Shown one piece after another: positions 5,603 through 23,276 of a stretch of DNA of 52,713 nt. The position numbers and the translations under genes were made by a program. Position 1 is the first letter of the stretch, and each line of letters begins with the position of its first letter. The notes beneath the pieces were generated by a model. The model was not told the DNA's origin. It saw nothing but the letters and a program-made list of their open reading frames with translations, and ran no database searches. Source of the DNA: a candidate division WWE3 bacterium RIFCSPHIGHO2_02_FULL_38_14. GTDB lineage: Bacteria; Patescibacteriota; WWE3; UBA101185; UBA10185. The DNA lies in the NCBI GenBank assembly GCA_001772865.1, contig MEVD01000021.1, positions 1 to 52,713 on the forward strand. Direction: 5' to 3'.

Positions 5603-5604
5603 AT

Positions 5605-6189
5605 TTATTTAACAGCCAGCTTATCCAATCTAAATGACACGTTCATAAAATACGATGCCCTGTTGGTTTTGCTCTCTAAATTAACTGAATTTAGGACCAC
5701 ATCACTGAAGAGATTTTCCAGTCCTTCATGTCCACCTTCAAAATTTTCATCGGTCAAATCATTAATAAATTGTGCAACTGCAAGGTAATTATCTCCCGAA
5801 CCCGAAATTGTTATTGAGCTGGTGGCTGTAATAGTCAAATCGTCAATTTTAATTGTAGAGGGAGTTCTGGTTCGCAGCTCCTCCAGCAAAAGCGAATAAT
5901 TAAATTTTGTATCAAAAATCGTATTTAAAGCTTTATATTTCGCAAACAAGTTTCTGGCTACAATTTCTATGTCAGACATTCTTTTAATCTGAGCTCTGCT
6001 GTCTTCAATCTCGGCTTCTTTAGTCGCAATACTTTTTTGCACTTCGGATTTTGAATTAAAAAAATACGCAGCTACAGCACCCGCAACCAAAAGCAGAAGT
6101 ACTGATAAAATCGTGCTGACTTTTACAAGCTTTTCTTTTTCCTGTTCCTGTTTTTCTTCGTGCGGTATAAGGTTGATGCTTTGGGCCAT
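5605..6189 (-). CDS. pilN: Type IV pilus assembly protein PilN
   Basis: N-terminal INLIP motif, TM helix, coiled coil, ITISG..NYLAVAQFI. Confidence 0.85.
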   Translation of the reverse strand: MAQSINLIPHEEKQEQEKEKLVKVSTILSVLLLLVAGAVAAYFFNSKSEVQKSIATKEAEIEDSRAQIKRMSDIEIVARNLFAKYKALNTIFDTKFNYSLLLEELRTRTPSTIKIDDLTITATSSITISGSGDNYLAVAQFINDLTDENFEGGHEGLENLFSDVVLNSVNLESKTNRASYFMNVSFRLDKLAVK

Positions 6190-6190
6190 A

Positions 6191-7262: not shown

Positions 7263-8066
7263 TCAGTTAGATAACGCATCGGTGGCTGACTTTTGATAAA
7301 TAGCATAGTCAAACTGCGTGGGCATTTGGTATAAAGTTTTTAATACCTCGATTTTTCTTACCTGCTCTGAGACAGTACCTTCCGAAGATATTAATATACC
7401 CTGCGAAGGAATCGTCGCACCCAGATCCGGAACTATGCTTAAAGTAACATCGTTATAAATTGATTTCACTCTTAAAATATCCGGAGACACGTTGCCTGAC
7501 ACGTCAAAGCAGTTTTGATAACCCAGTTGTGCAGTCGCCTCGGAAAATCCGTTATCCGAATGTGAAGATCCTACGGAATTATAAGAATAAGCATCCCCGC
7601 TGTAGTTTCCGGAACTTCCGTAAACAAATAGTGCCGTCACTGAAGGCAGATCTCCTCCTAAACTATTCCAGCATACTGTGAGTGAAGTATTATCAGGATA
7701 TCCGCTCAAACTAACTTCACTGGTGTTATCTTTATTCAGGAACAAACTGTAATCGCTGCTGGAATTTCCAAGGTAGCTCAAAGTAACATTAGCCTCAGCA
7801 TTAACACCATCAGAACCGGTTATAAGCAGGTAACAATCTGAGCCGCAGTTTCCGGAATCTATATAATCTTCCAAAGTCTCGGTTGGGAGTAGTAGAATTC
7901 TTTCCACCGCTGCTTCAGCAACGGCAAGCGCTCTCGAAGAAGAGTCGGACTGAGTTATATTTCTCACATTCGTTACATATCTTAATGAAATTGTAACCCC
8001 AAAAATTAAAGCAGCAACAGCCAAAAACACCACTATCAGTAATGTCTGTCCTTTATCATTTAACAC
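7263..8066 (-). CDS. PilX-like minor pilin (copy 2)
   Basis: KG|QTLLIVV leader without Glu5; RALAVAEAAVER; last in FimT-PilV-PilW-PilX order. Confidence 0.75.
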   Translation of the reverse strand: MLNDKGQTLLIVVFLAVAALIFGVTISLRYVTNVRNITQSDSSSRALAVAEAAVERILLLPTETLEDYIDSGNCGSDCYLLITGSDGVNAEANVTLSYLGNSSSDYSLFLNKDNTSEVSLSGYPDNTSLTVCWNSLGGDLPSVTALFVYGSSGNYSGDAYSYNSVGSSHSDNGFSEATAQLGYQNCFDVSGNVSPDILRVKSIYNDVTLSIVPDLGATIPSQGILISSEGTVSEQVRKIEVLKTLYQMPTQFDYAIYQKSATDALSN

Positions 8067-8067
8067 G

Positions 8068-8682
8068 TTAATAAGACCCCCTCACAACCAATGTATTGTC
8101 TAAAACAACATTACCTGTTTGAGAAGCACCGCCTCCTCCTACCTGGGCAAATTCCAAATGAACTTTAACAACATCAGGACCACCTACTGCGCGGGTTATA
8201 GTAAAACAATAATTACCCGGAGCCAGCACATTGCACGTTACATTTACCCCTCCGATACTTGCTGAATTTGTTACCGCTGTATAATTTGAACAATCTAATG
8301 GAATTCCACCGCTAAGCGAAAACCAGCCTCTCTGAAGAACTCCCACTCCGCTAACGGTAACCAATCTATAACAAATTAATCTGGTAGAATCACTATTTAC
8401 AAACCGCAGAACAGTATTTCCTACTCCGTTAGCAACCGGAAATAAAGTATACGAAGCATTTCTAACTTCTTTTTCCAGCTTAAAAGTTACAAAATTAGCA
8501 TTTTGCTCAATTTCATTTTGAACCTGAGTTTTAGTGTAACTGCGAACTAGTGAAGCAATTACATCACCAGTAACCCCAACAGAAATAGCCAACAATGAAA
8601 CTACTAAAAGAAGCTCAATTAAAGTGAAACCATCGGCTTCTTTTTTATAAGGGCTCTTCTTTAAATATTTAAGTTTTATCAT
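8068..8682 (-). CDS. PilW/GspJ-like minor pilin
   Basis: G|FTLIELL prepilin motif; QNANFVTFKLEKEVRNA helix. Confidence 0.8.
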   Translation of the reverse strand: MIKLKYLKKSPYKKEADGFTLIELLLVVSLLAISVGVTGDVIASLVRSYTKTQVQNEIEQNANFVTFKLEKEVRNASYTLFPVANGVGNTVLRFVNSDSTRLICYRLVTVSGVGVLQRGWFSLSGGIPLDCSNYTAVTNSASIGGVNVTCNVLAPGNYCFTITRAVGGPDVVKVHLEFAQVGGGGASQTGNVVLDNTLVVRGSY

Positions 8683-8692
8683 GTCAAAAAAA

Positions 8693-9190
8693 CTACCTCC
8701 AATTAGATAAATCAGTGTAAACGTTAGTCCGTTTTATAACTCCGCCTATCTCCCATCTTGCGGTGACGGAAATTCTAATCACATTATCTGTTGTTGTAAC
8801 AACATCCAGATTAACAGGATCTGAAATTGTTATCGACCTATACAAATTCTCTGCGGGGCGGGTGGCAAAATTAGGATTTGTCTGTTCTTCGCCGCTTGCC
8901 GGAGTCAGTGCAGAGGTTAAATAACATGATGTAGTACAATTAGCGGTTAAAAGACCGCCAACAAATTGAGCCCAGGTGGGGGAGTTATCTCTGTAAGCTC
9001 TTACCCTTTCCAACTCCTCATTCGCCAGTTTCGACCCTCTCAATAATAGTTTGCTTTGAAGAGAGTTTCTTAAGGTAAAAACAGAAAGAGACACTAACGA
9101 TGTAATCACAACAATAGAAATTCCCAAAGCTAATATAACTTCAACTAAACCTATGCCTTTCTCGTAATTTATATTTTTCAATATCTTCAT
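8693..9190 (-). CDS. PilV/GspI-like minor pilin
   Basis: KG|[11 protein letters not shown]; [14 protein letters not shown]; start moved to ATG 9190. Confidence 0.78.
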
Positions 9191-9195
9191 GTATA

Positions 9196-9750
9196 TTAAT
9201 TGCCCGCAACTATCAGTCCGTTGGCATTCATGCCTACATATCTGCATGAAGTAGCTGAATCGCAAATATTTATACAGGTCATCCCGGTTAACTGACCCGC
9301 AGGACAAGCGGGGAGTCCTATAAAATTTGCATCCCCGTTTTCCATACTAAAAAAAAGACACCCCTGCGAACTATTTATTGTAATCGGACTGGTAAAGGGC
9401 TGGCTACTTCCCTGATTTGTATAAACTCCTCCGGGTGTGCAGCTTGTATTAAGTTCCGAAGAAAAATAAGTGTAAGAAGATGCGGGATTACTGGTAATAT
9501 TTATACCCCAGTAATTAGCTCCCGTACTGCTAGCTGTACCGGTTATTGCTTTATTCTGAACTCCTCTTAAATCGCTTAAAAGTATTTCCTGAGCCTGCCT
9601 TAAATTTTGATTTTTTATAAAACCGGAAAAACTTGGAATTAAAGCTCCCGTTAAAATAGAAACAATAACAACTACTATCAATAATTCTATAAGTGTAAAA
9701 CCATTAACTATATTTCTGTTATTTGCTGCAATTGGGGCAGAAATACTCAT
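9196..9750 (-). CDS. FimT/FimU (GspH)-like minor pilin
   Basis: G|FTLIELL; [14 protein letters not shown]; Cys-rich C-terminus. Confidence 0.8.
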
Positions 9751-9767
9751 GGATAAATTTTAGCATA

Positions 9768-10283
9768 CTAAATAATATTTAAATTATTACCTATTTCATA
9801 AACTTCCGTGTCGTTGCCACCGTCATCAGTAGAATATTCCGTTAAAATTTCCAGCCTTACATTTAACTCATAACCGTTGTCGTTGTGCATAAATGAGTAG
9901 AAATATGAGCTGTCATTCAGTGGATCGATAGGTAATTTTGTTATATTTGCAGACAAATCAGCGTCAATCCACCCCTGCTGCGGATTTTCCAAAGGACCGG
10001 AATTACCAGCCGGTAGTGTAGTACTGGTTCTTAAGGTGTTTGCAGCACCAGGATAAACTCCGTTATTAAGAAGATATTCATTTATTGCTCTGTCCAAATG
10101 TTCAGCTTCCGCCAACCTTTTATTATCCCTGGCTTTGGCGTTTTGACCTGAAGGATTAAAATGACCGAGGATAAAACCCGAAAGCAATATAGCTATAGTG
10201 GCTACAATAATTAATTCAATTAATGTGACTCCCTTAGAATTATAATTTTGTGGAAATTCAAACTTTAAAACCGAAGTTTTCAT
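9768..10283 (-). CDS. Type IV pilin-like protein, paralog of 20379-20879
   Basis: KG|VTLIELI; KARDNKR; LPIDP; DGGND..YEIG; ATG 10283 overlaps upstream TGA. Confidence 0.85.
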   Translation of the reverse strand: MKTSVLKFEFPQNYNSKGVTLIELIIVATIAILLSGFILGHFNPSGQNAKARDNKRLAEAEHLDRAINEYLLNNGVYPGAANTLRTSTTLPAGNSGPLENPQQGWIDADLSANITKLPIDPLNDSSYFYSFMHNDNGYELNVRLEILTEYSTDDGGNDTEVYEIGNNLNII

Positions 10284-10837
10284 GGATTTTGAACACCATA
10301 ACAATAAACAGTTGCAGGAATAGCTCCGCAGGTAACCGAACTCCAATTGCTCAACGTGCTGCACAAACTCTCATTATCCGAAGTATCTACCTGCATTCTA
10401 GCTGTTAAAACGTATCTCGAAGCCAGACAGGGAGTTCCCGAACAAGCCGTAGTTCTGTATGAGTAATAAGTATTAGTGTTGTTTACGCAAGGGTTAGTAC
10501 TAGTTACATCTCCCGAAGGATCCCTAGGCAATACACCAATATAGTTTGGTACTACCGCAGTTGATAAAACCGTACCAGTGGCGGTGGCATTTACCCATGT
10601 AGTTGTACCCGGATATCCCCGAAAATCTGTAAAATAATTTTCCAAAGCCAGTTGTATCTTTTTTAAATCTCCTTTTCTTGTACCATCGTTGGTTTTAGCT
10701 CTAATACCTTGAGGGTTTATAACCGTGATAGCAACACCTGCTAAAATTCCCATGATTACAATCACAATTAATAGTTCTACTAGAGTAAACCCTTTATTGT
10801 ATTGAATTAAAATGTATTTTTTATACAAATTTTGCAT
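10280..10837 (-). CDS. Type IV pilin / GspG-like protein
   Basis: KG|FTLVELL; RKGDLKKIQLALENY; LPRDP; start moved to ATG 10837. Confidence 0.88.
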   Translation of the reverse strand: MQNLYKKYILIQYNKGFTLVELLIVIVIMGILAGVAITVINPQGIRAKTNDGTRKGDLKKIQLALENYFTDFRGYPGTTTWVNATATGTVLSTAVVPNYIGVLPRDPSGDVTSTNPCVNNTNTYYSYRTTACSGTPCLASRYVLTARMQVDTSDNESLCSTLSNWSSVTCGAIPATVYCYGVQNP

Positions 10838-10841
10838 AACA

Positions 10842-11432
10842 CTACAGAATACAATCTGTTTCGTCAATTTGAACGCATTCCGTCAAATCATTTCCCCAAA
10901 ATGCAGGATCACACGGAAACATGCAATTCTTAACAACCTTACCCGTGCAAATCGGATCTCCGCCAACATAACCAGGGTGGTGCGGATTAATATATTTTAA
11001 ATATTTGCTGGAATTTGTAGCCATATTAATTGATACACAACTAACAGTCACTGTTCCCTCTGTAATTGGATAATATAAATACGTGCCGTAAAACTCGGTA
11101 TTCTGAACCGGCCAAACACCAACATAATTTAGTAACGTAGTTCTATTAGGTCCCGGGGATACTCCGGTTCCCAAAGGATTACCGGACGGATAAACCGATC
11201 CTGGATAAAAACCTTCGGCAACATAAAAAGCGTCTATAATCTGCCCCAATTTTGAGACAGTAGCTTGTCTGACGGAATCCTCCGCTCTGGCTTTCTGTTG
11301 ACGTGTATTCATAATACTCATAGTAAACGCCGCCAAAATACCAAGAATGCTTATAACAATCAATAGTTCAACTAATGTGAATCCCTTTTTAAAAGCTATT
11401 AAATTATTTCCAATTGAAAATTCCATATTCAC
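10842..11432 (-). CDS. Type IV pilin-like protein with Cys-rich C-terminus
   Basis: KKG|FTLVELL; KARAEDSVR. Confidence 0.87.
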   Translation of the reverse strand: MNMEFSIGNNLIAFKKGFTLVELLIVISILGILAAFTMSIMNTRQQKARAEDSVRQATVSKLGQIIDAFYVAEGFYPGSVYPSGNPLGTGVSPGPNRTTLLNYVGVWPVQNTEFYGTYLYYPITEGTVTVSCVSINMATNSSKYLKYINPHHPGYVGGDPICTGKVVKNCMFPCDPAFWGNDLTECVQIDETDCIL

Positions 11433-11483
11433 TATTTTAATTCAAACGAAGCAGTTTCACCTGGAATCAATATTATTTTAAAT

Positions 11484-11512
11484 GTGGCCTTTTCCCCTCA
11501 GAATAAGGCCAC
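11484..11512 (-). terminator. Stem-loop after candidate major pilin
   Basis: GTGGCCTT-N13-AAGGCCAC. Confidence 0.5.
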
Positions 11513-11532
11513 CTGATTATCAAGTAAGAACT

Positions 11533-12156
11533 TTAAACCCGATCACACGTAGGGGAGCTCGGACTCGTTGCAATAGCAAAGGTTGTTGGGCATGCCCAAA
11601 ATCCTTCAATTATTGCGCCTGTTGCTGACTCTTCAAAAGAATATACAAATAATCTTTCGGGAGTTGCAAATCCTCTGACTCCAATTCGGAATAGAGTGGG
11701 CGATTTGTAATAAACAAAACTACATTGAGCACCAGGTGCTGCTACTCCATTATAATTTGTTGCATCACAGTTTGTAGGAGTATCCAGCGCTGTAACTCTA
11801 AATAAACAAGATCCTGTTACTCCAGGTCCACCGACATTATCATCACAATCGCTATTTGCTACATCAAGGGTACCAACCGAACCCGCAAACTCCTGATATG
11901 TAGGAGCTCTTTGAGTATTTCTTGGGGATGACACAAAGAGTGATTTACCTGCTAAAGCTGCCTTGCTGATAGCAGACCTTAATGTACCATCTCTGGCTCT
12001 ATTTTGCTGCTGTACAGGATTTAATACACCAATAACTACACCAGCAAGAATACCTATAATAACTATAACGATTAAAAGTTCCACAAGTGTGAAACCACCG
12101 TCATTGGGACCCAAAAAAGTCCTCATTTTTCTCAATGATTTCATTGAATTAAACAT
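11533..12156 (-). CDS. Type IV pilin, candidate major pilin
   Basis: GG|FTLVELL; LNPVQQQNRARD; six Cys; strong SD AAAGGAGGTG before ATG 12156. Confidence 0.88.
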   Translation of the reverse strand: MFNSMKSLRKMRTFLGPNDGGFTLVELLIVIVIIGILAGVVIGVLNPVQQQNRARDGTLRSAISKAALAGKSLFVSSPRNTQRAPTYQEFAGSVGTLDVANSDCDDNVGGPGVTGSCLFRVTALDTPTNCDATNYNGVAAPGAQCSFVYYKSPTLFRIGVRGFATPERLFVYSFEESATGAIIEGFWACPTTFAIATSPSSPTCDRV

Positions 12157-12308
12157 AGTCTGCACCTCCTTTCTAGTTATATTTTTTAATTTACTTTTAT
12201 GATTTTCTACCATGATACTATGGGCAGATACTGATATGTATCATGCAAAACTTCCTTTATTAAGTATGAGTTTATCTAAACTTTGTGTCAAGATTGTAAA
12301 ATAGTTTA

Positions 12309-14669
12309 TTAATTCAGCCACTCCCAATTTATATCAACAATTGATATGCCCGTATAATTTGGCACATCCATACTTGACCTCTCCTGCCTGGTAAGTCTGT
12401 ATATGTATTGGCTGTTATATACATGTACGTTTGTAGGATAAATTTCACTATTGACGTTTCCTATATTTCTTTGCATATCTACCCTTTTGGTAATTACCGG
12501 TCCTTCAACCACAACAGAAATATCAGTTGAGCCGTTAGTTAAATACTTAATTACATTATTTGCTCCAGGCGCAGTGGTTATTAATCCCGCTTGTATATGG
12601 GGTAGGGTACCGGTAGTCGGAGCTCCGATCCCTATAGATGGTGATATTTCAATAGGAGCGGCCGTACTTACAATATAAATCCTTTCATCTGCCGCCGAAG
12701 ATGTTATCCTTCCGTTAATTTTTAATGGAGTTGTTTCTGTGTAATACAAAACTGCAGTACCTGGACCTGATAAATTATATGTGGTTCCAGCCGAATCAAA
12801 TAAGTCGGACTTCATTATTCTATAAACCCTAACCGAACCCGGATTTATTGAGTTCAAGGAACTTTTATCATTTATTTGCGTAACCAACCCATGCGAGGGT
12901 AATCTTAAACTTAAATATTCCGAAGGCCACATTTTATCGGCTGCAAAAGGCATTCTCATTGCAAATCCTCCTTTGGTTTCCGAAGGCAGTCCGCTCATTT
13001 GTTTGTATATTCTGCCTGATCTTCCTACCGCATTTATATTTAACGATCCGTTCATCGCTGTAAACGCATAACTCATTTCACCGTTAGCCGATACAGCCGC
13101 CCAATCACCTAAATATCCGGCAAAAGTGCTGGGGGAAAGCGGGGGAGCGGGAACTGACTGTATTATTCCGTTTCCGCCATAAACATCGCTGTACAATGAA
13201 GTAAACCAGGGATTCTGAGCTACCAGGCGTAGGCCGACATGTGAAGTTTTATTCGAGGTCATGTTTAATGAATTTGATAACTGATAGCATCCTACCCAAG
13301 GGTAGGCATTTTCGCCGTTCACACATGATAATCTATATTCACCTGTGGGTGGGGGATTAATTGAAACACACATGTCTAATATAATAGTGCCATAAGGAAT
13401 TCCTTTTATAGCGAAATTTCCGTCAGCTTGAACACTGCCATAATAAAATGCACCGCTGTTAGATCTGGCGCTTACTGTAGCGTTGCTGTTTAAAATTGCA
13501 GGAGAATTTGCAGAACAGACACCAACATTAGGTGCGTTATATAGTACTCCGCTGATAGAAAGTGTGGGTCTGACGTAGACTATAATTGTTGCTGACCCTC
13601 CCGTTGCACCCGCCTGATCAACTGCTTCAGAACTAAAATATAAATTCCGTCCTGTTCCTCCGCTAAGTCCGTTTGTATTAAAATCGATATTAGAAAGACT
13701 TAATGAGGAACACAATCCGGAGCAAGTTGTGCTTCTAATAGTCGTAATCGGAATAGACGGACTTCCATCCCCAAAATACCGCAAATGCAGAGAACTCAAA
13801 TTGCTATTAGCGTCTGACGCCGTCGAGTTAAATCTTAATAAGTCACCGTCATTTATGTAATTCATACCAGGGGTTACTAATACAACATTTGGAGGAGGAG
13901 AGACCTTTTGTCCATTTATTGTAGCTGTAGGAGCCACATTGGGGTTTGTGCAATTAATTATTTTAGAAGTAGAACCGCAGTTCCCTCCACTGCCGCAAAG
14001 TTCAGCATTGCCGCTTCCTACAACCGCACCTGTCGAATTTATATTAATGCCATAGGCTCTGATTTCATGGTTATTACCGTCCTTCAAACTTAATGGAGTG
14101 GGAAACCCGTTAAATCTATGAAAACATTGGGGGTAAGTGGATTGATCAAGAGGTGTTGATCCATCACCGCAAACCGAACAACTGGCGCTTGAACCACAAA
14201 CTCCCGCTTCACTCCTTGTATTCGCATTTGTCCCGCCAACAAAAACCCCATCGGCGTAGAAGTGTACATCAATAGGAACATTTATATTATCATCATCTCT
14301 CGCCCAGCCATAAAAAGCATTACAATCAACAGGGTCCAGCCAGCCTACAGGAGAGCTCCCCGAAGGAACTGGGTCTCCGCACGGCTGACAGCTACCCCAG
14401 GCATGACTGCCGCCGCAGTCGTCATCACTATCACATGCTGTGCCTCCGCAATTACAATAACCGCGCCCTGTATCACAATAATTGTCATAATTGTTATTGC
14501 ATAAGAAGCAGTATCCTTCCTGTGCACAAGTACGACTGGGACATTCATTGTTGCAGAACTGTTCTGCATAAACATAATTGCCTTCAAAAACGTTATATAC
14601 AAAATAAAAAGACAACGAAAAAACAATTACCAGTAATGATTTATAAATAAATTTCCCGCTCATTTTCAT
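12309..14669 (-). CDS. Large secreted Cys-rich protein (candidate pilus adhesin, copy B)
   Basis: Signal peptide (VYA|EQ), 12-Cys N-terminal domain, PVGWLD..C..F.GWA.D Ig-like module, PWFTSLYSD C-terminal domain; paralog of 16459-18729. Confidence 0.8.
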   Translation of the reverse strand: MKMSGKFIYKSLLVIVFSLSFYFVYNVFEGNYVYAEQFCNNECPSRTCAQEGYCFLCNNNYDNYCDTGRGYCNCGGTACDSDDDCGGSHAWGSCQPCGDPVPSGSSPVGWLDPVDCNAFYGWARDDDNINVPIDVHFYADGVFVGGTNANTRSEAGVCGSSASCSVCGDGSTPLDQSTYPQCFHRFNGFPTPLSLKDGNNHEIRAYGININSTGAVVGSGNAELCGSGGNCGSTSKIINCTNPNVAPTATINGQKVSPPPNVVLVTPGMNYINDGDLLRFNSTASDANSNLSSLHLRYFGDGSPSIPITTIRSTTCSGLCSSLSLSNIDFNTNGLSGGTGRNLYFSSEAVDQAGATGGSATIIVYVRPTLSISGVLYNAPNVGVCSANSPAILNSNATVSARSNSGAFYYGSVQADGNFAIKGIPYGTIILDMCVSINPPPTGEYRLSCVNGENAYPWVGCYQLSNSLNMTSNKTSHVGLRLVAQNPWFTSLYSDVYGGNGIIQSVPAPPLSPSTFAGYLGDWAAVSANGEMSYAFTAMNGSLNINAVGRSGRIYKQMSGLPSETKGGFAMRMPFAADKMWPSEYLSLRLPSHGLVTQINDKSSLNSINPGSVRVYRIMKSDLFDSAGTTYNLSGPGTAVLYYTETTPLKINGRITSSAADERIYIVSTAAPIEISPSIGIGAPTTGTLPHIQAGLITTAPGANNVIKYLTNGSTDISVVVEGPVITKRVDMQRNIGNVNSEIYPTNVHVYNSQYIYRLTRQERSSMDVPNYTGISIVDINWEWLN

Positions 14670-14682
14670 ATTAATTATATAT

Positions 14683-15450
14683 TTAATTCCCGTTCACAAC
14701 CAAAATAAACTTAATATCCAATGGATTATGATAAGAAGGGACAGATTCTCCTTTAAAATTTATCGGATTTTTTTTGGCAGATCTGTCAATTACATAATTT
14801 ACAGAGTCTCCGATATTTACATCTTTTAGATATATCGGAGTTAATAATTTGTTCTGATCATATTTAAATAATGAGATTTTTCTCGGATAATACAATATTC
14901 CAAATTCCTCACCAGTATCATCCGACAAAAGCAAAAAATCTGTTTCTTCATTAATCGGACCTAAATCCATCACTATGGCTTTTTCAAATTCCAATACTCC
15001 GGAAAAAAGCGCTGAACCTTTGCATTCTTCGAAACCGGCATAATATGTTTTACTTATTTCAAATCTACCAGAAAGAGGCTTGAAATTGAAAAAATCCGGT
15101 ATAAACGCTGTTTCGCCATTAACAGTAATTTTCCAAAGATTATTTTCTTTTGTTGGTGAACCGGTAATTTTAAATAAATAATCCGAATATTTGCAATTAT
15201 CATTATCTACTTTTCTTAGGGCAATCTTTTGGTCTTCAAACTTCCCCCTAAATTCCTGGGTAGAATTTAAAATTTCTCCGGTTGTCAAATCTTCAAAAAC
15301 ACTGCCTTCTGCATCTTCAACGCTTTTATCATTAAATTTATTTTCAAGACCGTACTTTCCGGGATTTAAATACAGATACAAAACACCAAATAATATTAGA
15401 GGAACAAACAAAACAATTAAAATTATTGAAATTGGGCGGAATTTAACCAT
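14683..15450 (-). CDS. Single-TM exported hypothetical protein
   Basis: N-terminal hydrophobic anchor; C-terminus resembles 18736-19239. Confidence 0.7.
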   Translation of the reverse strand: MVKFRPISIILIVLFVPLILFGVLYLYLNPGKYGLENKFNDKSVEDAEGSVFEDLTTGEILNSTQEFRGKFEDQKIALRKVDNDNCKYSDYLFKITGSPTKENNLWKITVNGETAFIPDFFNFKPLSGRFEISKTYYAGFEECKGSALFSGVLEFEKAIVMDLGPINEETDFLLLSDDTGEEFGILYYPRKISLFKYDQNKLLTPIYLKDVNIGDSVNYVIDRSAKKNPINFKGESVPSYHNPLDIKFILVVNGN

Positions 15451-15501
15451 AGTAACTTACCATTTGATCAATCAATTCCTTTAATAACTCTTAATTAACA
15501 T

Positions 15502-16443
15502 TTATAACGCTGCTTCGGAATACAAACCAAAATCAAACACAACCGGTAAATAGGGGAGTGATCTGTATGCCAGAACTTGCGCAGTAGCTGTAACAGAAAC
15601 ATCACTTATGGATGACAACATACCGGTAGAATCTATTTTGTAACCTTGGATCGGAAACAAGGATACATTTGTTGTCGGCATAACTCTCATTTTTACATTT
15701 GTATTTAAAGATCTAATTCTTAAACCGTAAGGAGTTCTACCCAGGCTGGTATCAAGTGTAACAGTTCTTGTAAAACGATATCCCAACGCTGAACAGTTTG
15801 CTGGGGCACTGCTGGCATCCACAAAAGTCAGTGATTCCACATATGTCCCACTTCGAGTGCCTGCTCTCACACCTTGTTTAACATAAACACCTTGTGCGCC
15901 GTAATCTATATAATACAAGTCAACCGGAGTATTCCCGCCGTTATCTGGATCGGCTCTCCAGCATAATTGAAGAGACATAGCTCCCGCACCCTCAGTATTT
16001 ATTTCTCTTACTTCACCTGAGGGAATTACTGTTTCAAAAGCAAGATTATCGGCACTGTTATATTTAAATGTGGAAACTCTCACAATTGCTTCAGCTCTGA
16101 TATTATCTCCGGTGGTCGGGTTAAAAGCTACTTTGCAACCGTCCTTTCCGCCGGCTTGAGTGTCATCATAAAACGTTGTATTCGGCGGGCAGTCGGTATT
16201 TGAAAGAGGAGCGCTTGCTCTTTCCAATTGGGCTCTGGATAAAGTCAGAAATCTTTCAGCCCCTCCTTCGGCAGCGCCTAAAACTCTGGAAGAAGTATCG
16301 GTTCGGGATACCCTTGAAGAAGATGTTAATTCTCTCAGCGAAACTCCTACACCTAAAGCCAGTGCTATGGTCAAAGCAACCACCACAAAAAGAAGCGCCT
16401 GACCTTTTTGATTTAAATTATGAAGCAACTCTATTTTCAACAT
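15502..16443 (-). CDS. PilX-like minor pilin (copy 1)
   Basis: KG|QALLFVV; SSRVLGAAEGGAERFL; C-terminal LP..FD; paralog of 7263-8066. Confidence 0.75.
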   Translation of the reverse strand: MLKIELLHNLNQKGQALLFVVVALTIALALGVGVSLRELTSSSRVSRTDTSSRVLGAAEGGAERFLTLSRAQLERASAPLSNTDCPPNTTFYDDTQAGGKDGCKVAFNPTTGDNIRAEAIVRVSTFKYNSADNLAFETVIPSGEVREINTEGAGAMSLQLCWRADPDNGGNTPVDLYYIDYGAQGVYVKQGVRAGTRSGTYVESLTFVDASSAPANCSALGYRFTRTVTLDTSLGRTPYGLRIRSLNTNVKMRVMPTTNVSLFPIQGYKIDSTGMLSSISDVSVTATAQVLAYRSLPYLPVVFDFGLYSEAAL

Positions 16444-16458
16444 TTTAATTATCTATAT

Positions 16459-18729
16459 TTATTGTACGACACCGTAACTAACATCTACAACACTTAATCC
16501 GGTATAATTCGGTACATCTCCGCTGTTCCTCTCCATTTGGGTCAGCCTGTACAAATAATTATAGTTATATAAATGTACATTTACGGGATATTGCTGATTT
16601 CTCAAAGTTCCTAAATTTCTTCTCATTTCAACTGTTTTTGATACAACCGGTCCTTCAGCTATTATTGATAAATCATTAGAGGCGTTAGTTGATAAGTATG
16701 AAATTCTATTATTTCCCCCCGAGGCAGTTGTTATCATTCCTGCCTGAATGTAAGCTGCCAGACCATTTGATGGAGAAATAGTGCCTACGGAGGATGCTAT
16801 CTCAATTGGTGCAGAAGTGCTGACTATAAACAACCTTTCGTTTGTAGCACCAGTAGTGTGTCTTACTAATCCGTTAATAGTTAAAGTTGATGACCCAGTA
16901 TAATATAAAACCGCCACTCCGGTACCGGTTAAGTCATATGATGTCCCCGCTGCGTCAAAAAAATTGGAATTTGAAAACCTGTAAACCCTCACAGTACCGG
17001 GATTAATTGAATTCAATTCAGACTTACTAGTTAACGTAGTAACCAAACCGTGGGTAGGTACAGCTAAACCTACATATGTAGACGGCCACATCTTATCAAC
17101 AGCGATCGGCATTCTCATCGCAAATCCACCTCGGGTCTCTAAAGCTGTTCCGCTCATTAGTCTGTATACCCTTCCTGATCTTCCCACCGCATTTATATTC
17201 AATGTTCCATTCAACGAAGTGAATGCGTAACTCCTTTCGCCATTTGCTGATGCTGCTGCCCAGTCTCCCAAATACCCCGTAAATGTAGTGGGTTGTACAG
17301 GGGGATTGGGAACTGTCTCGCTTATTCCGTTCCCTCCGTATATATCCGAATAAAGAGAGGTGAACCATGGCTCTTGAGTTTCGATCTTCAATCCTACATT
17401 TAACGTCCTGTTCGATGTCATGTTGGTAATTTGAGTGTTTAACGTATGGCACGACGGACTGGGATAAGCATTCTCCGTACCTCCATTGACTACACAATTC
17501 AACCTATAGACACCCGTCGGAGGGGCTGGAGGATTTACACAGATTGTTTTAACATTGCTCCCATACCTTAAACTAAAAGAATAATTTCCACCGCCGTCAG
17601 TATTTGTAGAAGGATATGCTTGATTCAACTCGTTATATATAGTAACTGTTGCATTTCCAATAAGTGAAGTAGCAGAACACGAACCTATCAGCGGGGCTTC
17701 ATATATTACTCCGCTTAAAATTACTTTCGGTCTTACATAAACTTGTATAACGCCGCTGGCAGCTGTTAAACCGGCCTGATCGGTAGCATATGAATAAAAA
17801 TAAAGATTTTTACCCCCATAAGAATTAGTATTAAAGTCGTAAGAACCGTTCAATGAACCGCACACTCCTGTACAGCTTCGCGCAGGAACTATTAGATCTC
17901 TCGCGGCTACCCCGTCACCCCAGTTAATTAAACGCAAATTAGATAAATTGTTATTTGAATCGGTTGCCCCGACTCCAAATCTTAACATGTCGCCTTCGTA
18001 TACAGTAGTTAATGTATTTTGCGGAAGATTTAGAGCAGGAGAACTTGAAATGTCAGTTCCGGTTATGTAAGCGACAGGCGGATTATTTACTGGAGCACAA
18101 GTTATTGTTTTTGGTGTTCCGTTTAATTGCTGATTCCTACCAGTTCGACCAGAGTCTGTTTCCGTATTGTTATTTCTTATATTATAAGCCCATACAGTTA
18201 TTGAGTGAGACGCACCATTTTTGAGATACTCCGGTACAGAAAAATAAAATCCGTGCAAACACCCCGCGGCAGAACTTGGACATGTGTAACAATTGTTACC
18301 AGCTACAGCGTCACACACAGCTTGCTCCCTTGGACGATTTGCAAGTATTTTACTTCCTGGTATTAAAACATTATCGGCATAAAATTCTACATTAATTTGC
18401 GAATCACCAGTATCTTGATCACCAGCCCAACCTTGGAAGGCCGTACAGTTAGCTACATCTAACCATCCGGTCGGAAGCCAATTATCTTTTGCTCCTCCAC
18501 CACAGAAATTATAACTCAAGCACCTATAAGTACCCGAAGGCCCGTCGCACCCGATTTTCCCAGGCTGTTGATCGCAGTAACAGCAGTTAACACCATTAGC
18601 ACAGCACTGCCCATCCGGAGTATAACAACCTGTTGGATCACCTCCGCATTGCGCATACAAATTTTTAGCACCACTCAAAATTATAAGTGAAAAAAACAAT
18701 ACATAAATGTAGACAGTTATTTTACGCAT
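16459..18729 (-). CDS. Large secreted Cys-rich protein (candidate pilus adhesin, copy A)
   Basis: Signal peptide (LYA|QC), 10-Cys N-terminal domain, PTGWLD..C..F.GWA.D module, PWFTSLYSD domain. Confidence 0.8.
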   Translation of the reverse strand: MRKITVYIYVLFFSLIILSGAKNLYAQCGGDPTGCYTPDGQCCANGVNCCYCDQQPGKIGCDGPSGTYRCLSYNFCGGGAKDNWLPTGWLDVANCTAFQGWAGDQDTGDSQINVEFYADNVLIPGSKILANRPREQAVCDAVAGNNCYTCPSSAAGCLHGFYFSVPEYLKNGASHSITVWAYNIRNNNTETDSGRTGRNQQLNGTPKTITCAPVNNPPVAYITGTDISSSPALNLPQNTLTTVYEGDMLRFGVGATDSNNNLSNLRLINWGDGVAARDLIVPARSCTGVCGSLNGSYDFNTNSYGGKNLYFYSYATDQAGLTAASGVIQVYVRPKVILSGVIYEAPLIGSCSATSLIGNATVTIYNELNQAYPSTNTDGGGNYSFSLRYGSNVKTICVNPPAPPTGVYRLNCVVNGGTENAYPSPSCHTLNTQITNMTSNRTLNVGLKIETQEPWFTSLYSDIYGGNGISETVPNPPVQPTTFTGYLGDWAAASANGERSYAFTSLNGTLNINAVGRSGRVYRLMSGTALETRGGFAMRMPIAVDKMWPSTYVGLAVPTHGLVTTLTSKSELNSINPGTVRVYRFSNSNFFDAAGTSYDLTGTGVAVLYYTGSSTLTINGLVRHTTGATNERLFIVSTSAPIEIASSVGTISPSNGLAAYIQAGMITTASGGNNRISYLSTNASNDLSIIAEGPVVSKTVEMRRNLGTLRNQQYPVNVHLYNYNYLYRLTQMERNSGDVPNYTGLSVVDVSYGVVQ

Positions 18730-18735
18730 TACAAA

Positions 18736-19239
18736 TTATTCTAAAATCCTGAAAACCACTTTATTATCATTACTATTATAATCAAAAAAAACTGTAACCG
18801 TCATGTCTTTTTTAATTTCTGAAAAATCTGCTATTTCCAACGGATCGTTCAAATCCTTTTTATACTTATAAAAACTGAAATTTATAGAAGTATCAACAAT
18901 CAAAGGTGATTCATTTTTCATTTTCAGTGAAATCGATTTTCCCTGAATATCCAAAACCGTAGAAGTAATAGCCGATAATACCTGGTTTCCATCCTTGTCC
19001 TTAGTGTATGAAGTAAAATATTTATAATCTACTATTTCCGGACTTTTTTCTTTTACATTTCCAAAAACCGAATCATCTTTTTCATTCTTTTCCGGGGTTT
19101 GCTTGGTAACTACTTTATTGGTATTTTGCAAATATAAAAGCAATGCAAATAGAACTACAGATATAGGAATAAGAAGAAGAAAAAACTTTAATTTCCTTCT
19201 TCCGTTGGAAAGGTTGAGGCTAGTTATACTTTCATCCAT
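18736..19239 (-). CDS. Single-TM exported hypothetical protein
   Basis: RRKLK + hydrophobic helix; beta-rich C-terminus DFSEIKKDMTVTV. Confidence 0.7.
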   Translation of the reverse strand: MDESITSLNLSNGRRKLKFFLLLIPISVVLFALLLYLQNTNKVVTKQTPEKNEKDDSVFGNVKEKSPEIVDYKYFTSYTKDKDGNQVLSAITSTVLDIQGKSISLKMKNESPLIVDTSINFSFYKYKKDLNDPLEIADFSEIKKDMTVTVFFDYNSNDNKVVFRILE

Positions 19240-19326: not shown

Positions 19327-20211
19327 TTATTTAATAACTGCGAAATACCAGTCCAAAACAGCTGTTCCGTAAACATATGCCACAATACTTCCTAAAATCA
19401 AAAAAGGCCCGAACGGTATGGTATCTTTTATAGTTTTTATTTTAATTAACACCAACACAACGCTCACTACCGCGCCTATAATAAAACCCAAAAAAATTGC
19501 CAGTATATTATTAGGAAAACCGTTTACCATTCCTATCAAAAATCCCAGGGTTACATCTCCGCCTCCCATACCTCTGCCTTTTGTAATAAAAATCAGAAAC
19601 AGAAAGAACAAGCTAATAGCAAAGGAGCTGACAATATTAAAACCAAAATCTCGGAGCAAATATAAAACCTGGTTGTCAAAGTATCCAGCTTTATATAAAT
19701 ACACTCCGAAAGTATCACTTAATAAACCCGATCTTAATACCATTAAATTAAAAACCGACACTGCAAGTTGGAATAAAATTACAAAAACAATTCCTGTATA
19801 AACGATTTTGTTAGGCACAAGCCTGAACTTCAGATCCGTCAGAAACAAAGTTACATAAAAACAATAAATAGCCGATAAATATAAAAAATTCAAAATATTT
19901 TCAATCGAAAAATTATCAAATAATTTTGTCCAGTACGCTATGCCGATAAATCCCAAACCTGTAAACAATTCACTTATAAAATAAATATGGGACAATTTGG
20001 TTTTACAACTCAAACATTTTCCTTTTATAAAAATATAGCTTAATAGGGGAACCAGTTCTTTGGGAGAAAGCAGCTTGGAACATGACTCGCACTTAGACCT
20101 ACCTTTTAAAAAAGGTTTTTCAAACGGAAGTCTGTCGGATACCAAATTTAAAAATGATCCGAAAATCGCGCCTACAAAAAAAATTAAAATATAATAAACA
20201 GCGTAAAGCAT
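19327..20211 (-). CDS. pilD: Prepilin peptidase
   Basis: GSFLN, RSKCESC...GKCLSC, TDLK and GMGGGD catalytic Asp motifs, IPFGPFL. Confidence 0.95.
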   Translation of the reverse strand: MLYAVYYILIFFVGAIFGSFLNLVSDRLPFEKPFLKGRSKCESCSKLLSPKELVPLLSYIFIKGKCLSCKTKLSHIYFISELFTGLGFIGIAYWTKLFDNFSIENILNFLYLSAIYCFYVTLFLTDLKFRLVPNKIVYTGIVFVILFQLAVSVFNLMVLRSGLLSDTFGVYLYKAGYFDNQVLYLLRDFGFNIVSSFAISLFFLFLIFITKGRGMGGGDVTLGFLIGMVNGFPNNILAIFLGFIIGAVVSVVLVLIKIKTIKDTIPFGPFLILGSIVAYVYGTAVLDWYFAVIK

Positions 20212-20344
20212 GCCCTAAAGTGTATCAGTGGGATGGGAACACTACAACATTTTTATTAATAGGCTTGCGTAAATACCAAACTAATAAACTGAGTACCGTC
20301 CAAAATATAATATCAAACACAGTAAAAACAGCAAAAACTGAAGA

Positions 20345-20366
20345 AGACCCCAGAATTCTGGGGTCT
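20345..20366 (-). terminator. Intrinsic terminator after pilin 20379-20879
   Basis: Perfect 22-bp palindrome AGACCCCAGAATTCTGGGGTCT followed by T-rich run on minus strand. Confidence 0.65.
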
Positions 20367-20378
20367 CCACAAAGCAAA

Positions 20379-20879
20379 TCAGATTATAGTTAATGATGTT
20401 CCGACTTCATAGGCAGCTGCGTCATTTCCTCCGTCTGTAGTCATTTTTGTAGCGTTGTCGGTAGATTCCATTACTGCATTGATTTCGTATCCTGTTATAG
20501 TTGACGCGAAAGTATACACATAAATTGTGGTGTTAGTTGGGTCAACTGGTACAGCAGGTAGGTACTTAGCTAAACCTGTTTTAGTTGCAGGAATCGTAAA
20601 TTTAATCCATCCATTTGTGCCGTCAACGGCTTGTGTGCCGGAGGCACTGGTACATGTAGTACAACCGCTGGTATCCGTTAAAACTATTTCCTGTTCGGTT
20701 AATGCAACTGTTAAAGCACTTTGCAATGTGTCCATTTCTCTCAGTCTCTTTGAATCTCTACCTTTAGCTAACATTTGAGCCGGGTTAATAACCAAAGCTA
20801 AAACACCAGCGAGCAATGCGATGATTGCGATAACAACAATAAGTTCAACCAGTGTGAAACCTTTTTCTTTTCTTATCAT
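20379..20879 (-). CDS. Type IV pilin, candidate major pilin
   Basis: KG|FTLVELI; INPAQMLAKGRDSKR; SD AGAAGGAGGTG; directly after pilC; own terminator. Confidence 0.9.
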   Translation of the reverse strand: MIRKEKGFTLVELIVVIAIIALLAGVLALVINPAQMLAKGRDSKRLREMDTLQSALTVALTEQEIVLTDTSGCTTCTSASGTQAVDGTNGWIKFTIPATKTGLAKYLPAVPVDPTNTTIYVYTFASTITGYEINAVMESTDNATKMTTDGGNDAAAYEVGTSLTII

Positions 20880-20963
20880 ATGATTATAAATTTCACCTCC
20901 TTCTATTTATTATATATAATTTGCAGTTTTACAACACTTCCTCAAAGCAAAATAATACTTTCT

Positions 20964-22166
20964 CTAAAGCGAAGCTGTTATCTTGTATATCGGAGTAATT
21001 ATAGAAATAATTAAAACACCTACCATACTTCCTAGCAAGATTAAAATTATAGGTTCAAGGGCTGCTGACATTCCTTTTACAGCATGATCAACCTCTCCGG
21101 CAAAATAATCCGCAACTTTTTCAAGAGACTGATCAAGCTGACCTGTTTCTTCTCCAACGGATGCCATTTGACCTAACAAAGGCGGAAGGTTTTTATTAGC
21201 TTTAAAATATTCCGAAAGGGGGCTTCCTTTCTCAACTCGTCTCGCTGCTTCAAGGCATATTTCTTTATATACTCTGTTTTTCACCACATCCGAAACTATT
21301 TTCAGTGACTCAACTATAGGAACCGCAGAAGCTATGAGAAGACTAAGAGTGCTCGTCATTTGTGTAATATCAGTTTGTCTGTTTATATTCCCGAATACGG
21401 GAAGTTTAAAGGATATATACGACATAAAACTTTTACCTGTATCTGATTTTGAAAACCTCGACCACCCGAAAATTCCTCCTGCTGCCAAACCGAAAATTAT
21501 ATAAACCTTTTCGGTAAACAGCTTGGAAAACGCAATCATTATCTTCGTCATGAGCGGAAGCTCTATATTTAAGCTCTCATACATAGTTGCCAGTTTAGGT
21601 ATTACAAAAACCATCATTATCACAAAAACGCCGATCATAGCCAAAAATACAATTGCAGGATAAATCATGGCCGCTTTAAATTTTGCATTTAATTCCCGGT
21701 TAGCCTCCATGGTGGCAGCAAGTTTGTTAAGAATTTCATCCAACTTTCCTGATGATTCTCCTGCCCTTATCAATGCCTGGTAGGTATTTTTAAAAACTTT
21801 TGGATATCTGGACATAGCCATGGATAATGAAGAACCTCCTTCAACGTCTCTTAATATATCTCCCAGGATTTTTCTCATTTTTCTATTAGTTGTTTGTTCG
21901 GCTAATATTTCCAAAGCTCTGGATATAGGCAGCCCGGCAGATATCATAGTTGAAAACTGCCTCGTAAAATTGACCACCTCATTTTCGGGAACACCGCGGA
22001 GTTCTATCAGAAATTCGAATAAATTAGCTTTCTTTTCCGTAAGGCTTAGAACAAACATTCCCTGATTTTTTAGCAGGGAAATTGCAAGTTCTTCAGTGCG
22101 CGCGTCGACCGTACCTACGCGTCTGACACCTAAGTTGTCAGTTGCTACATAATTATAAATAGCCAT
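20964..22166 (-). CDS. pilC: Type IV pilus platform protein PilC (GspF family)
   Basis: FTRQFSTMISAGLP, AGESSGKLD, GEETGQLD, LEP motifs. Confidence 0.95.
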   Translation of the reverse strand: MAIYNYVATDNLGVRRVGTVDARTEELAISLLKNQGMFVLSLTEKKANLFEFLIELRGVPENEVVNFTRQFSTMISAGLPISRALEILAEQTTNRKMRKILGDILRDVEGGSSLSMAMSRYPKVFKNTYQALIRAGESSGKLDEILNKLAATMEANRELNAKFKAAMIYPAIVFLAMIGVFVIMMVFVIPKLATMYESLNIELPLMTKIMIAFSKLFTEKVYIIFGLAAGGIFGWSRFSKSDTGKSFMSYISFKLPVFGNINRQTDITQMTSTLSLLIASAVPIVESLKIVSDVVKNRVYKEICLEAARRVEKGSPLSEYFKANKNLPPLLGQMASVGEETGQLDQSLEKVADYFAGEVDHAVKGMSAALEPIILILLGSMVGVLIISIITPIYKITASL

Positions 22167-22181
22167 GTATTATTTCGTTCT

Positions 22182-23276
22182 TTATTTAGACGCTACCTTA
22201 GTTTCTTTAATAATTCTTCTTAATTCATCAGGGCGCGGGCTGAATTTTAAGGCTTCGTTTACATCTACTTCTCCATCATTCACTAAAGTTGCCAAACTCC
22301 TATCCAGTGGGCACATTCCCATACTTATACTGTTGCCGATCATGTTATCTATCAAATGTGTTTTTCCCTCTCGAATAAGGTTTCTAATTGCGTCACTCGC
22401 CAGCATCAGCTCAACTGCAGGAACCATTCCTTTAGAGTCAGACGGTAGAAGTCTTATTGAAACTATTACCTCAAGAACCTGTGAAAACTGAAGTCTTACT
22501 TCGGCCCTTTTTTCCTCAGGATAGGAACTGATAATCCTGTCCACCGACTGAGCGGCCGAATTAGTGTGAAGAGTTGTAAAAACTAAATGACCGGTTTCTG
22601 CTATTTGAAGGGCGGTACTTATTGTTTCTGTGTCTCTCATTTCTCCGATCATTACCACGTTAGGATCCTGCCTTAAAACAGATTTCAGAGAAATTTCCCA
22701 CGAATGCGTATCCAAAAACATTTCTCTTTGTTCAATCAGCGACAGTTTATTAGTGAAAATATATTCAATAGGGTCTTCAACAGTAATAACGTGTTCGGAT
22801 CTGGTTTCATTTATCCTTTGAATCATTGCTGCAATAGTTGTGGACTTTCCGTGTCCGGTAGGTCCTACTACCATTACCAGCCCCTGTCTTAACTCGCACA
22901 AATTGCTAATTGACTTTGGAAGATTAAGTGATTCTAAAGAAGGGGGATGGGGCGGAATAAGCCTTAACGCCACTGAAGGATAACCCTTCTGATAAAATGC
23001 ATTCACCCTAAATCTCGCTTTATTTCCAAGCGACACTGAAAAATCCAATTCTCTGTTTACTTCAAATAAATCTTTCTGCTCTTTTTCCATCAATTGGGAT
23101 AGAAAGTATTCAATATCTCCGACCATCAAAAGAGCCCCTTCTTCAAGAGGAGACAGTCTCCTGTTTACCCTGACCATCGGATTAGCCCCTACGGACAAAT
23201 GTAAATCCGATGCATTAAGTGAAAGTACTTTTTCCAACATCTGCGACGCTGTAAGTTTCATAATTTTATTTGGCAA
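22182..23276 (-). CDS. pilT: Retraction ATPase PilT
   Basis: GPTGHGKSTT, TVEDPIE, LRQDPNV, ETGHLVFTTLHT, AIRNLIRE. Confidence 0.95.
   Translation of the reverse strand: MPNKIMKLTASQMLEKVLSLNASDLHLSVGANPMVRVNRRLSPLEEGALLMVGDIEYFLSQLMEKEQKDLFEVNRELDFSVSLGNKARFRVNAFYQKGYPSVALRLIPPHPPSLESLNLPKSISNLCELRQGLVMVVGPTGHGKSTTIAAMIQRINETRSEHVITVEDPIEYIFTNKLSLIEQREMFLDTHSWEISLKSVLRQDPNVVMIGEMRDTETISTALQIAETGHLVFTTLHTNSAAQSVDRIISSYPEEKRAEVRLQFSQVLEVIVSIRLLPSDSKGMVPAVELMLASDAIRNLIREGKTHLIDNMIGNSISMGMCPLDRSLATLVNDGEVDVNEALKFSPRPDELRRIIKETKVASK

Follow-up and report, generated by a model that had tools for sequence, protein, structure and literature searches.

What are two large secreted proteins doing in a pilus operon when they resemble no pilin and belong to no named family? 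The question is raised by contig MEVD01000021.1 of the candidate division WWE3 bacterium RIFCSPHIGHO2_02_FULL_38_14, analysed here over its whole stretch of 52,713 nucleotides (nt) and referred to as the window (contig C21 of a genome of 0.94 Mb in 23 contigs, 96% complete). On its minus strand a type IVa pilus operon encodes two such proteins, of 756 and 786 amino acids (aa), here called BIG756 and BIG786. From models and gene neighborhoods we consider it probable that they represent an unnamed family of non-pilin proteins that are exported by the Sec pathway, loaded on the tip of the type IV pilus (T4P) through a PilX-like pilin, and used there as a cap or adhesin in the manner of PilY1. A first-pass annotation of this DNA had proposed a pilus-linked family other than PilY1, in which the C-terminal docking domain stays constant and the N-termini vary. 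This core is supported by the recurrence of the module, by its synteny with PilX-like and pil genes, by a ComZ-like fold and by a predicted complex that passes its controls; the swappable cysteine domain and the duplicated anchor that were part of the same proposal are not.

Two large paralogs and their domains

The cassette in question consists of five genes separated by 6, 15, 51 and 13 nt, and the open reading frames (ORFs) are present in the order that had been claimed. In the direction of transcription they are as follows.

18736..19239, minus strand: 167-aa small protein with a single N-terminal transmembrane segment (about residues 16-37) and a beta-rich outside part, from the ORF and its sequence
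16459..18729, minus strand: 756-aa large secreted protein, BIG756, from the ORF and models
15502..16443, minus strand: 313-aa PilX-like protein, a putative tip minor pilin, PilXa, from the ORF, its homologs and a co-fold
14683..15450, minus strand: 255-aa small protein with a single N-terminal transmembrane segment; its gene ends 13 nt before that of BIG786
12309..14669, minus strand: 786-aa paralog, BIG786, with the same domain order as BIG756; the next gene encodes a pilin that is not PilX-like

The surrounding operon encodes PilB, PilT, PilC, PilD, PilM, PilN, PilO and pilins with N_methyl matches, all above the Pfam or NCBIfam cut-offs (PilN weakly, with 24.1 bits at a cut-off of 22.8), in agreement with the pilus setting described in the first-pass annotation.

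BIG756 and BIG786 are the sole two strong copies in the genome and are collinear paralogs, as had been stated, with 48% identity over 731 columns (BLASTP E = 0). Seven of the nine shared motifs quoted earlier match both proteins as written, and the other two, P.GWLD... and GGFAMRMP...KMWPS, are one residue longer in the gap. It is also correct that 10 and 12 Cys residues with differing spacing precede the GWLD motif. The N-termini had been called unalignable; their identity is indeed low (31%), but the BLASTP alignment already begins within the Cys-rich stretch, at residue 64 of BIG786 and residue 51 of BIG756. Neither protein matches a Pfam or NCBIfam family beyond sub-threshold noise, and no PilY1 or vWA domain can be recognized in either by Pfam at E ≤ 1, as the first-pass annotation had also concluded. 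A profile of the large family finds no match among PDB sequences at E ≤ 10. Two other identities were considered and rejected. The large proteins are not prepilins, as no class III signal was seen and there is no N_methyl or PilX_N match; and for an enzyme or an S-layer protein, the known families against which the earlier proposal was to be checked, there is no supporting match in Pfam, NCBIfam or the PDB sequences.

We modeled BIG756 in two parts with AlphaFold2 from alignments of relatives, residues 28-340 with a predicted local distance difference test score (pLDDT) of 78.5 and residues 330-756 with a pLDDT of 76.8. The resulting layout, together with the corresponding parts of BIG786, is given below; structural matches are listed by PDB chain with Z score, aligned residues and root-mean-square deviation (rmsd).

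18652..18729, minus strand: BIG756 residues 1-26, Sec-type signal (MRK, a hydrophobic core, then ...LYA followed by Q) with no prepilin G-F-T-L-E motif, read from the sequence
18484..18651, minus strand: BIG756 residues 27-82, Cys-rich stretch with 10 Cys, pLDDT < 50
18094..18483, minus strand: BIG756 residues 83-212, beta-sandwich here named GWLD
17728..18093, minus strand: BIG756 residues 213-334, PKD/fn3-like immunoglobulin domain (9kvu_A, Z 10.7, 94 aligned, rmsd 2.1; 4xed_A, Z 10.1)
17374..17727, minus strand: BIG756 residues 335-452, CnaB/transthyretin-like sandwich (10ps_A, Z 9.8, 109 aligned; 8bdw, CnaB2)
16462..17373, minus strand: BIG756 residues 453-756, predicted beta-solenoid docking domain and conserved tail (NYTGLSVVD...)
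14010-14405, minus strand: BIG786 GWLD domain
12312..13214, minus strand: BIG786 residues ~486-786, solenoid and C-terminal tail

The model of residues 330-756 consists of a CnaB-like sandwich, to which Foldseek against the PDB assigns a CnaB2 match (E 6e-4), followed by a beta-solenoid with a flanking helix. The solenoid is most similar to the ice-binding proteins 3wp9_A (Z 10.4, rmsd 4.0, 182 aligned), 7bwx_A (Z 9.9, rmsd 4.2, 174 aligned) and 6bg8_B (Z 9.8, rmsd 3.6, 167 aligned) and to ComZ, 6qvi_A (Z 9.4, rmsd 4.3, 203 aligned, model residues 131-427 on chain residues 134-519); these scores exceed the typical best Z of 7-8, yet lie within the range where repeats may share an arrangement only. 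The alignment with 6qvi_A extends to the C-terminal end of both the ComZ chain and the solenoid model. In the monomer model the C-terminal tail has no secondary structure, and its pLDDT goes down to 41 over the last seven residues.

The solenoid gene recurs beside a PilX-like gene

To see how the solenoid is distributed, a solenoid profile was searched against related genomes. Within the class 95 of 134 genomes have a match at E ≤ 1e-5; the solenoid is found in 68 of the 85 genomes of the window's family and in 3/3 of the sister family, and in 22 of 401 genomes of an even phylum-wide sample. For synteny, 18 + 40 loci (numbered with the prefix L) were gathered by the solenoid match alone and annotated by means of the window's operon proteins together with solenoid and 313-aa family profiles. 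Solenoid ORFs shorter than 250 aa and the loci L047-L050 (weak or distant match, or short contig) were left out before counting, and L054 is the same contig as L051. The count set comprises 68 solenoid ORFs in 54 loci of other genomes; these genomes are related, and the counts are thus not independent.

A PilX-like gene of the 313-aa type lies directly after 56 of the 68 solenoid ORFs (-120 to +300 nt, same strand). The homologs are clearly not unlinked to pilus loci; had they been, this would have spoken against the first-pass proposal. A second cassette follows in 4 cases and something else in 8; among the latter are L036, where another large gene comes first and a PilX-like gene after it, and the ortholog of BIG786. 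Most of the solenoid-PilX pairs are located between pilD and the minor pilins. Stand-alone pairs also occur elsewhere (L041, L043, L046, L060, L068, L079 and L081), and six loci contain orphan solenoid genes that have no PilX-like neighbor (L034, L038, L061, L070, L075 and L085).

Tandem cassettes are found in L059, L064, L069, L072, L073, L076, L077, L079, L087 and L090, some with their own PilX-like gene in each cassette and others with one in common, which suggests repeated duplication and loss. The genome of the window (G000) also bears a third, distant member with solenoid and tail on contig C16 (L094:3475-5469; 664 aa, with a signal peptide). Its gene is flanked by the genes for NDK and cysteinyl-tRNA synthetase and is not near pil genes, and its protein has a weak DUF7305 match (E 0.0024, below cut-off). 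Many other genomes of the class have similar ORFs of ~660 aa that match weakly (E 1e-6 to 1e-9).

Predicted docking on the PilX-like pilin

PilXa (313 aa) is a paralog of the 267-aa PilXb encoded in the same operon (27% identity, E 9e-20), whose gene is kept just before pilM in all related operons. The N-terminus of PilXa reads G-Q-A-L-L-F; it has no Glu at +5, and F occupies this position in 12/12 homologs. A missing Glu5 is reported to mark the terminal tip subunit in T4P and in type II secretion systems (T2SS) (PMC13759059). PilX_N (PF14341) is found at E ≤ 1 in 7 of 12 members of the PilXa family, weakly (best 5.9e-4), and the nearest Atlas clusters to PilXa include clusters that bear PilX_N, which we take as a lead only. 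A profile of the PilXa family has no match among PDB sequences at E ≤ 10.

When the BIG756 solenoid (residues 453-756) was co-folded with PilXa residues 36-313, each with its own unpaired alignment, the pair scored 0.89 (0.89, 0.87 and 0.89 in the separate runs), and the best of 3 controls scored 0.01. The runs share at least 82% of their contacts, and the pLDDT of the partner is at least 83. An extensive heterodimer of solenoid and PilXa is thus predicted. On the side of the large protein the predicted interface includes the motif block FTSLYSDIYGGNGISE, the block FAMRMPIAVDKMWPSTY, which lies in a stretch of pLDDT < 50 in the monomer model, and AEGPVVSKTVEM; the motifs PWFTSLYSD.YGGNGI and FAMRMP..KMWP take part, as does the C-terminal tail LSVVDVSYGVV (model residues 416-426). 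On the side of PilXa it is formed above all by the last 25 residues. It seems unlikely that the co-fold reproduced a complex seen in training, because we know of no complex that is similar in sequence.

The predicted binding to a tip-type pilin, together with the conserved and specific pairing of the two genes, argues against the view that the large protein is a secreted substrate, or a component of the S-layer or cell wall, exported through the pilus machine in a manner like type II secretion. The Sec signal, the high Cys content and the large, beta-rich extracellular part speak for such a substrate, but the failure to match any enzyme or S-layer family in Pfam, NCBIfam or the PDB sequences points the other way as well, and we regard this explanation as very improbable.

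A constant solenoid with exchangeable N-termini

Identity between the two paralogs increases along the protein: it is 31% in the Cys-rich stretch and 38-43% in the three sandwiches, and the solenoid halves show 74% and 57%. A word-index search recovered 5 clusters only, and an exhaustive profile search recovered 1144 proteins at E ≤ 1e-3, 153 of which were mapped for domains. The solenoid is present in 34 of the 153 and is C-terminal in every one. The parts that precede it in these 34 proteins are unrelated to one another and include CBM60 (in 5), fn3 (in 3), Big_7 (in 2), and SpaA_2/Cna_B, Hint and TSP1 (one each). No solenoid family of Pfam, DUF3494 included, matches the 34 members at E ≤ 1. 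The NY.GL...D block of the tail is the top-conserved 10-residue block in the family alignment (0.67).

The variability that the first-pass annotation had placed in the cysteine domain has a different shape. It is evident in one homolog, P0005, which shares 72-93% identity with P0003 from the PKD domain onward but has the Cys-rich stretch and the GWLD domain exchanged for a different Cys-rich piece of ~45 aa. The exchange thus takes the GWLD domain along and is not a swap of the cysteine domain by itself. Between orthologs the Cys-rich stretch is conserved like the rest (77% identity where the whole proteins show 73%, and 75% where the other domains show 74-85%). The constant C-terminus with an exchangeable N-terminus therefore stands, and the hypervariable cysteine tip does not.

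Conservation of the solenoid is also what would be expected if the solenoid-PilX pair did no more than prime and cap the pilus, in the licensing role of PilY1, and the N-terminal domains were a spacer with no ligand. A minimal form of 308 aa, made up of signal and solenoid only, is indeed encoded directly before a PilX-like gene in a complete pil operon (L042:9473-10399, genome G164). A capping role has been proposed for cyanobacterial PilX solenoids, and the C-terminal strand of PilC is described as partially sufficient for assembly (PMC12918778). Most homologs, however, carry 300-1400 aa of extra extracellular modules (CBM60, TSP1, fn3, Cna_B), and a single genome commonly holds two or three alternative copies. 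We therefore find a function confined to capping unlikely, and continue to favor a tip protein whose distal end binds.

Two side observations concern the N-terminal modules. Near its N-terminus, the solenoid homolog P0081 (897 aa) contains a module of the Hint/intein type (PF01079, E 1.9e-10). The GWLD sandwich is a widespread repeat of surface proteins that has no Pfam model and makes up most of the 1144 profile matches; the majority of the mapped matches have the GWLD domain only, often in 2-9 tandem copies. In surface proteins it co-occurs with CBM60, M23 or CHAP peptidase, CARDB, Big_7 and FG-GAP, and in an alignment of 27 sequences H132 and H148 are invariant. The domain would deserve to be described as a separate family.

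Small membrane proteins conserved in position

In 64 cases there is enough sequence to look upstream of the large gene; 56 of them have a small ORF of 100-330 aa within 200 nt, and by a crude test 44 of these small ORFs have an N-terminal transmembrane segment. In L051/L054 an ortholog of the 167-aa protein occupies the same position. Identity to the orthologs at these loci is 89% for the 167-aa protein, 88% for PilXa, 73-76% for the large proteins, and 49% for the 255-aa protein.

The small upstream protein is conserved in position and not in sequence. The 167-aa and 255-aa proteins show no relation by BLASTP (E 0.63) or by profile-profile comparison with hhalign (probability 3%, with the transmembrane segment as the only aligned part), and an all-against-all BLASTP of 15 positional counterparts likewise finds none between the two. 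One subgroup of the small upstream proteins has a common C-terminal motif, C..G..C.I(V/I); three profile-profile comparisons (probabilities 3%, 29% and 2%) show no relation among the 167-aa protein, the 255-aa protein and this subgroup. For both small proteins, Pfam and NCBIfam give nothing beyond sub-threshold noise. The weak C-terminal pattern that the two partners were thought to share is thus not above chance, and what had been described as a duplicated anchor amounts to a shared position alone.

As far as known, these bacteria lack an outer membrane. Because a soluble protein exported by Sec could otherwise leave such a cell, our guess is that the small transmembrane protein is an accessory factor, either a membrane tether or a holdase that acts until loading.

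A small transmembrane protein before most large genes would also fit an adhesin that is displayed on the cell surface away from the pilus, anchored in the membrane by the PilX-like helix, by the small protein or by both, with the operon link reflecting co-regulation. Further points in favor of this view are that PilXa has neither Glu5 nor an N_methyl match, that no PilD signals are predicted for PilX1 and PilX2 of TM7x as far as their description goes, and that orphan pairs of a transmembrane and a large protein lie outside pil loci (L034 and L038). The absence of Glu5 is, however, reported as the mark of a terminal tip subunit in T4P and T2SS, in most loci the pair has pilD on one side and the minor pilins on the other, and the TM7x PilX proteins are described as acting as pilus adhesins. 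An off-pilus adhesin thus seems quite unlikely to us, and the pilus tip remains the preferred location.

A possible mechanism at the pilus tip

At the pilus tip the large protein could work as follows. After Sec export, the solenoid and tail would lock onto the PilX-like tip pilin, and the pair would nucleate or join the minor-pilin priming complex. The growing pilus would then carry the large protein outward at its tip as a cap, and the sandwich stalk with the Cys-rich end would face away from the fiber and bind a surface, probably a host cell. Both paralogs would sit on the same dock and offer two different distal ends; this use of one dock is proposed as the reason why the solenoid is the part best conserved between the paralogs and why there is a single PilXa. 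Because relatives have modules of the CnaB, PKD, CBM60 and TSP1 types there, and because pili have such a role in Saccharibacteria, we infer by analogy that the distal ends serve adhesion or host binding. The bacterium is presumably episymbiotic.

Several observations weigh against this reading. Foldseek against the PDB gives no match for the solenoid at E ≤ 1e-3, and a Z of ~10 can mean merely a common repeat arrangement; for both reasons we treat the likeness of the modeled solenoid to ice-binding proteins and ComZ as a good lead and not as homology. BIG786 and 8 of the 68 homologs have no PilX-like gene directly downstream, and PilXa itself has no Pfam match, PF14341 included. Of 80 solved complexes, 58 reach the mark that the co-fold passed, as do 2 of 110 mismatched pairs; this calibration holds only roughly here, since the alignments were custom and unpaired. 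The co-fold output gives contacts and not geometry, with the other minor pilins left out, and strand complementation by the tail was not seen in it. Interface residues are no better conserved than the rest, either between the paralogs (49/76 compared with 139/228 in the rest of the solenoid, P = 0.68, Fisher's exact test) or within the PilXa family (0.46 compared with 0.42). Finally, the Cys-rich end is not hypervariable between orthologs, which weakens the idea of a recognition tip engaged in an arms race.

A bolder version is possible, although we hold it to be rather doubtful. The system may be a 'split ComZ', in which the capping solenoid and the tail have moved to an exchangeable Sec-exported protein. 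Its cassettes would be duplicated, orphaned and reshuffled, alternative tips would set the host range, and the small transmembrane proteins would be cognate tethers.

Comparison with known tip proteins

In the literature searched, supplements aside, no solenoid-type non-pilin tip protein was found described in Patescibacteria. PilC/PilY1, the non-pilin adhesin of proteobacterial type IVa pili, is described as held on PilK/PilX by its extreme C-terminal beta-strand and as licensing assembly (PMC12918778; PMC13711793), and MshQ is predicted to dock likewise (PMC12918778). GspK of T2SS and CpaL of Tad pili are reported to supply the completing strand themselves (PMC12918778), and the paralogous copies PilC1 and PilC2 of Kingella are reported to be able to share one pilus (PMC13711793). 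The large proteins of the window resemble PilY1/PilC and MshQ, as these are described, in being large, in carrying a Sec signal in place of a pilin motif, and in being encoded beside a gene of the PilX/PilK type in a minor-pilin operon. With PilY1/PilC they further share a variable N-terminal part, a constant docking part at the C-terminus whose last residues form a conserved peptide, and a predicted heterodimer with a PilX-type pilin. The differences are equally clear. Neither large protein matches PF05567 (T4P_PilY1) at E ≤ 1. The docking domain is modeled as a beta-solenoid, whereas that of PilY1 is a seven-bladed propeller. There is no vWA domain, the gene stands before the PilX-like gene and not after it, a small transmembrane protein precedes it, and the bacterium that carries it is ultrasmall, with a small genome of 0.94 Mb.

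In ComZ of Thermus thermophilus (6qvi) and in cyanobacterial PilX, an ice-binding-like solenoid is described as interrupting the pilin fold ahead of its last strand, with a role as tip cap proposed and with extra, lineage-specific domains grafted on its distal end. The modeled solenoid of the large proteins, predicted to sit at a GspK/PilX-like tip pilin, resembles this arrangement as far as these accounts go. In ComZ and cyanobacterial PilX, however, the solenoid is part of the pilin; in the window it makes up the C-terminal end of another, Sec-exported protein, a gene of its own encodes the pilin, and there is no sequence similarity (no PDB sequence at E ≤ 10). The DUF3494 ice-binding proteins provide the best structural matches of the solenoid, which may again reflect repeat arrangement only; they differ in context and in the extra domains, and none of the 34 solenoid members has a DUF3494 match in Pfam at E ≤ 1.

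PilX1 and PilX2 of Nanosynbacter lyticus TM7x are pilus tip adhesins of an ultrasmall episymbiont that are reported to bind the host cell wall, and they too have no predicted PilD signal according to the published account. They are described as single polypeptides that combine a pilin helix with a jelly-roll or a propeller, in contrast to the separate protein found here, and the TM7x T4P loci contain no large non-pilin gene as far as the published description goes. TadG/CpaL of the Tad system is similar in being a large tip subunit whose extreme C-terminus is described as completing a pilin-like sheet. An Atlas cluster of TadG-like proteins from Bacillota matches the solenoid model with a TM score of 0.56 over 227 residues, which is a lead only; CpaL has a pilin-like N-terminal domain of its own, and no sequence relation is shown.

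The family would thus work like PilY1/PilC, yet differs from it in sequence and modeled fold, and it looks like ComZ and cyanobacterial PilX, yet is no pilin. It joins the two designs by placing a solenoid with its tail on a separate exported protein beside a pilin that has no Glu5.

The remainder of the operon

In the direction of transcription the operon reads PilB, PilT, PilC, a 166-aa pilin and PilD, then the 167-, 756-, 313-, 255- and 786-aa genes, then seven pilin-like genes, the 267-aa gene, PilM, PilN and PilO. The genes on either side of the cassette are as follows.

19327..25026, minus strand: PilD, the 166-aa major-pilin candidate, PilC, PilT and PilB, from family matches
23266-25026, minus strand: PilB
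19327-20211, minus strand: PilD
8068..12213, minus strand: seven pilin-like genes, six with an N_methyl match and the seventh (8693-9307) with none
7263..8066, minus strand: 267-aa second PilX-like protein, PilXb, paralog of PilXa
4814..7222, minus strand: PilM, PilN and PilO

By reading, Glu is present at +5 in all seven pilin-like ORFs and in the 166-aa pilin. The longest-ORF calls of some minor pilins overlap their neighbors by 26-112 nt (8693-9307 with 9196-9750; 10280-10867 with 9768-10364 and with 10842-11432), and translation probably begins at later codons, immediately ahead of the G-F-T-L-(I/V)-E motif. A strong terminator-like hairpin on the minus strand at 20338-20368 (11-bp stem with 7 G-C pairs, followed by a T run) comes shortly after the 166-aa pilin gene and ahead of pilD, and may attenuate transcription after the major pilin gene. 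No strong terminator was found within the five-gene cassette, and promoter-like sites in the region are not in excess (30 compared with 29.4 in shuffled sequences). In two other loci (L044:12802-14641 and L045:12655-14494) pilD is separated from the cassette by a 127-aa ORF and a divergent 464-aa ORF, which on visual inspection resemble a response-regulator receiver and a sensor kinase.

Implications for host attachment in Patescibacteria

Ultrasmall bacteria of the Candidate Phyla Radiation (Patescibacteria) live attached to other microbes, and to our knowledge type IV pili are the sole devices of host binding studied in them so far. In the one model studied, TM7x, the adhesins are described as PilX pilins with a fused binding domain. 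Our results suggest that a different lineage commonly has a second tip design (in the window's family, 68 of 85 genomes), in which a separate modular protein is clipped to a PilX-like pilin via a solenoid. Such a design would extend the recently proposed rule that a tip pilin is completed by the C-terminus of a partner to a class other than PilY1, and would link the solenoids found in cis in ComZ and cyanobacterial PilX to a form that acts in trans. It also offers testable candidates for determinants of host range, namely the N-terminal modules, among them CBM60, TSP1 and the as yet unnamed GWLD domain. If the 'split ComZ' version were true, one pilus machine could present alternative tips, and the set of cassettes in a genome would fix which host cells the bacterium is able to seize.

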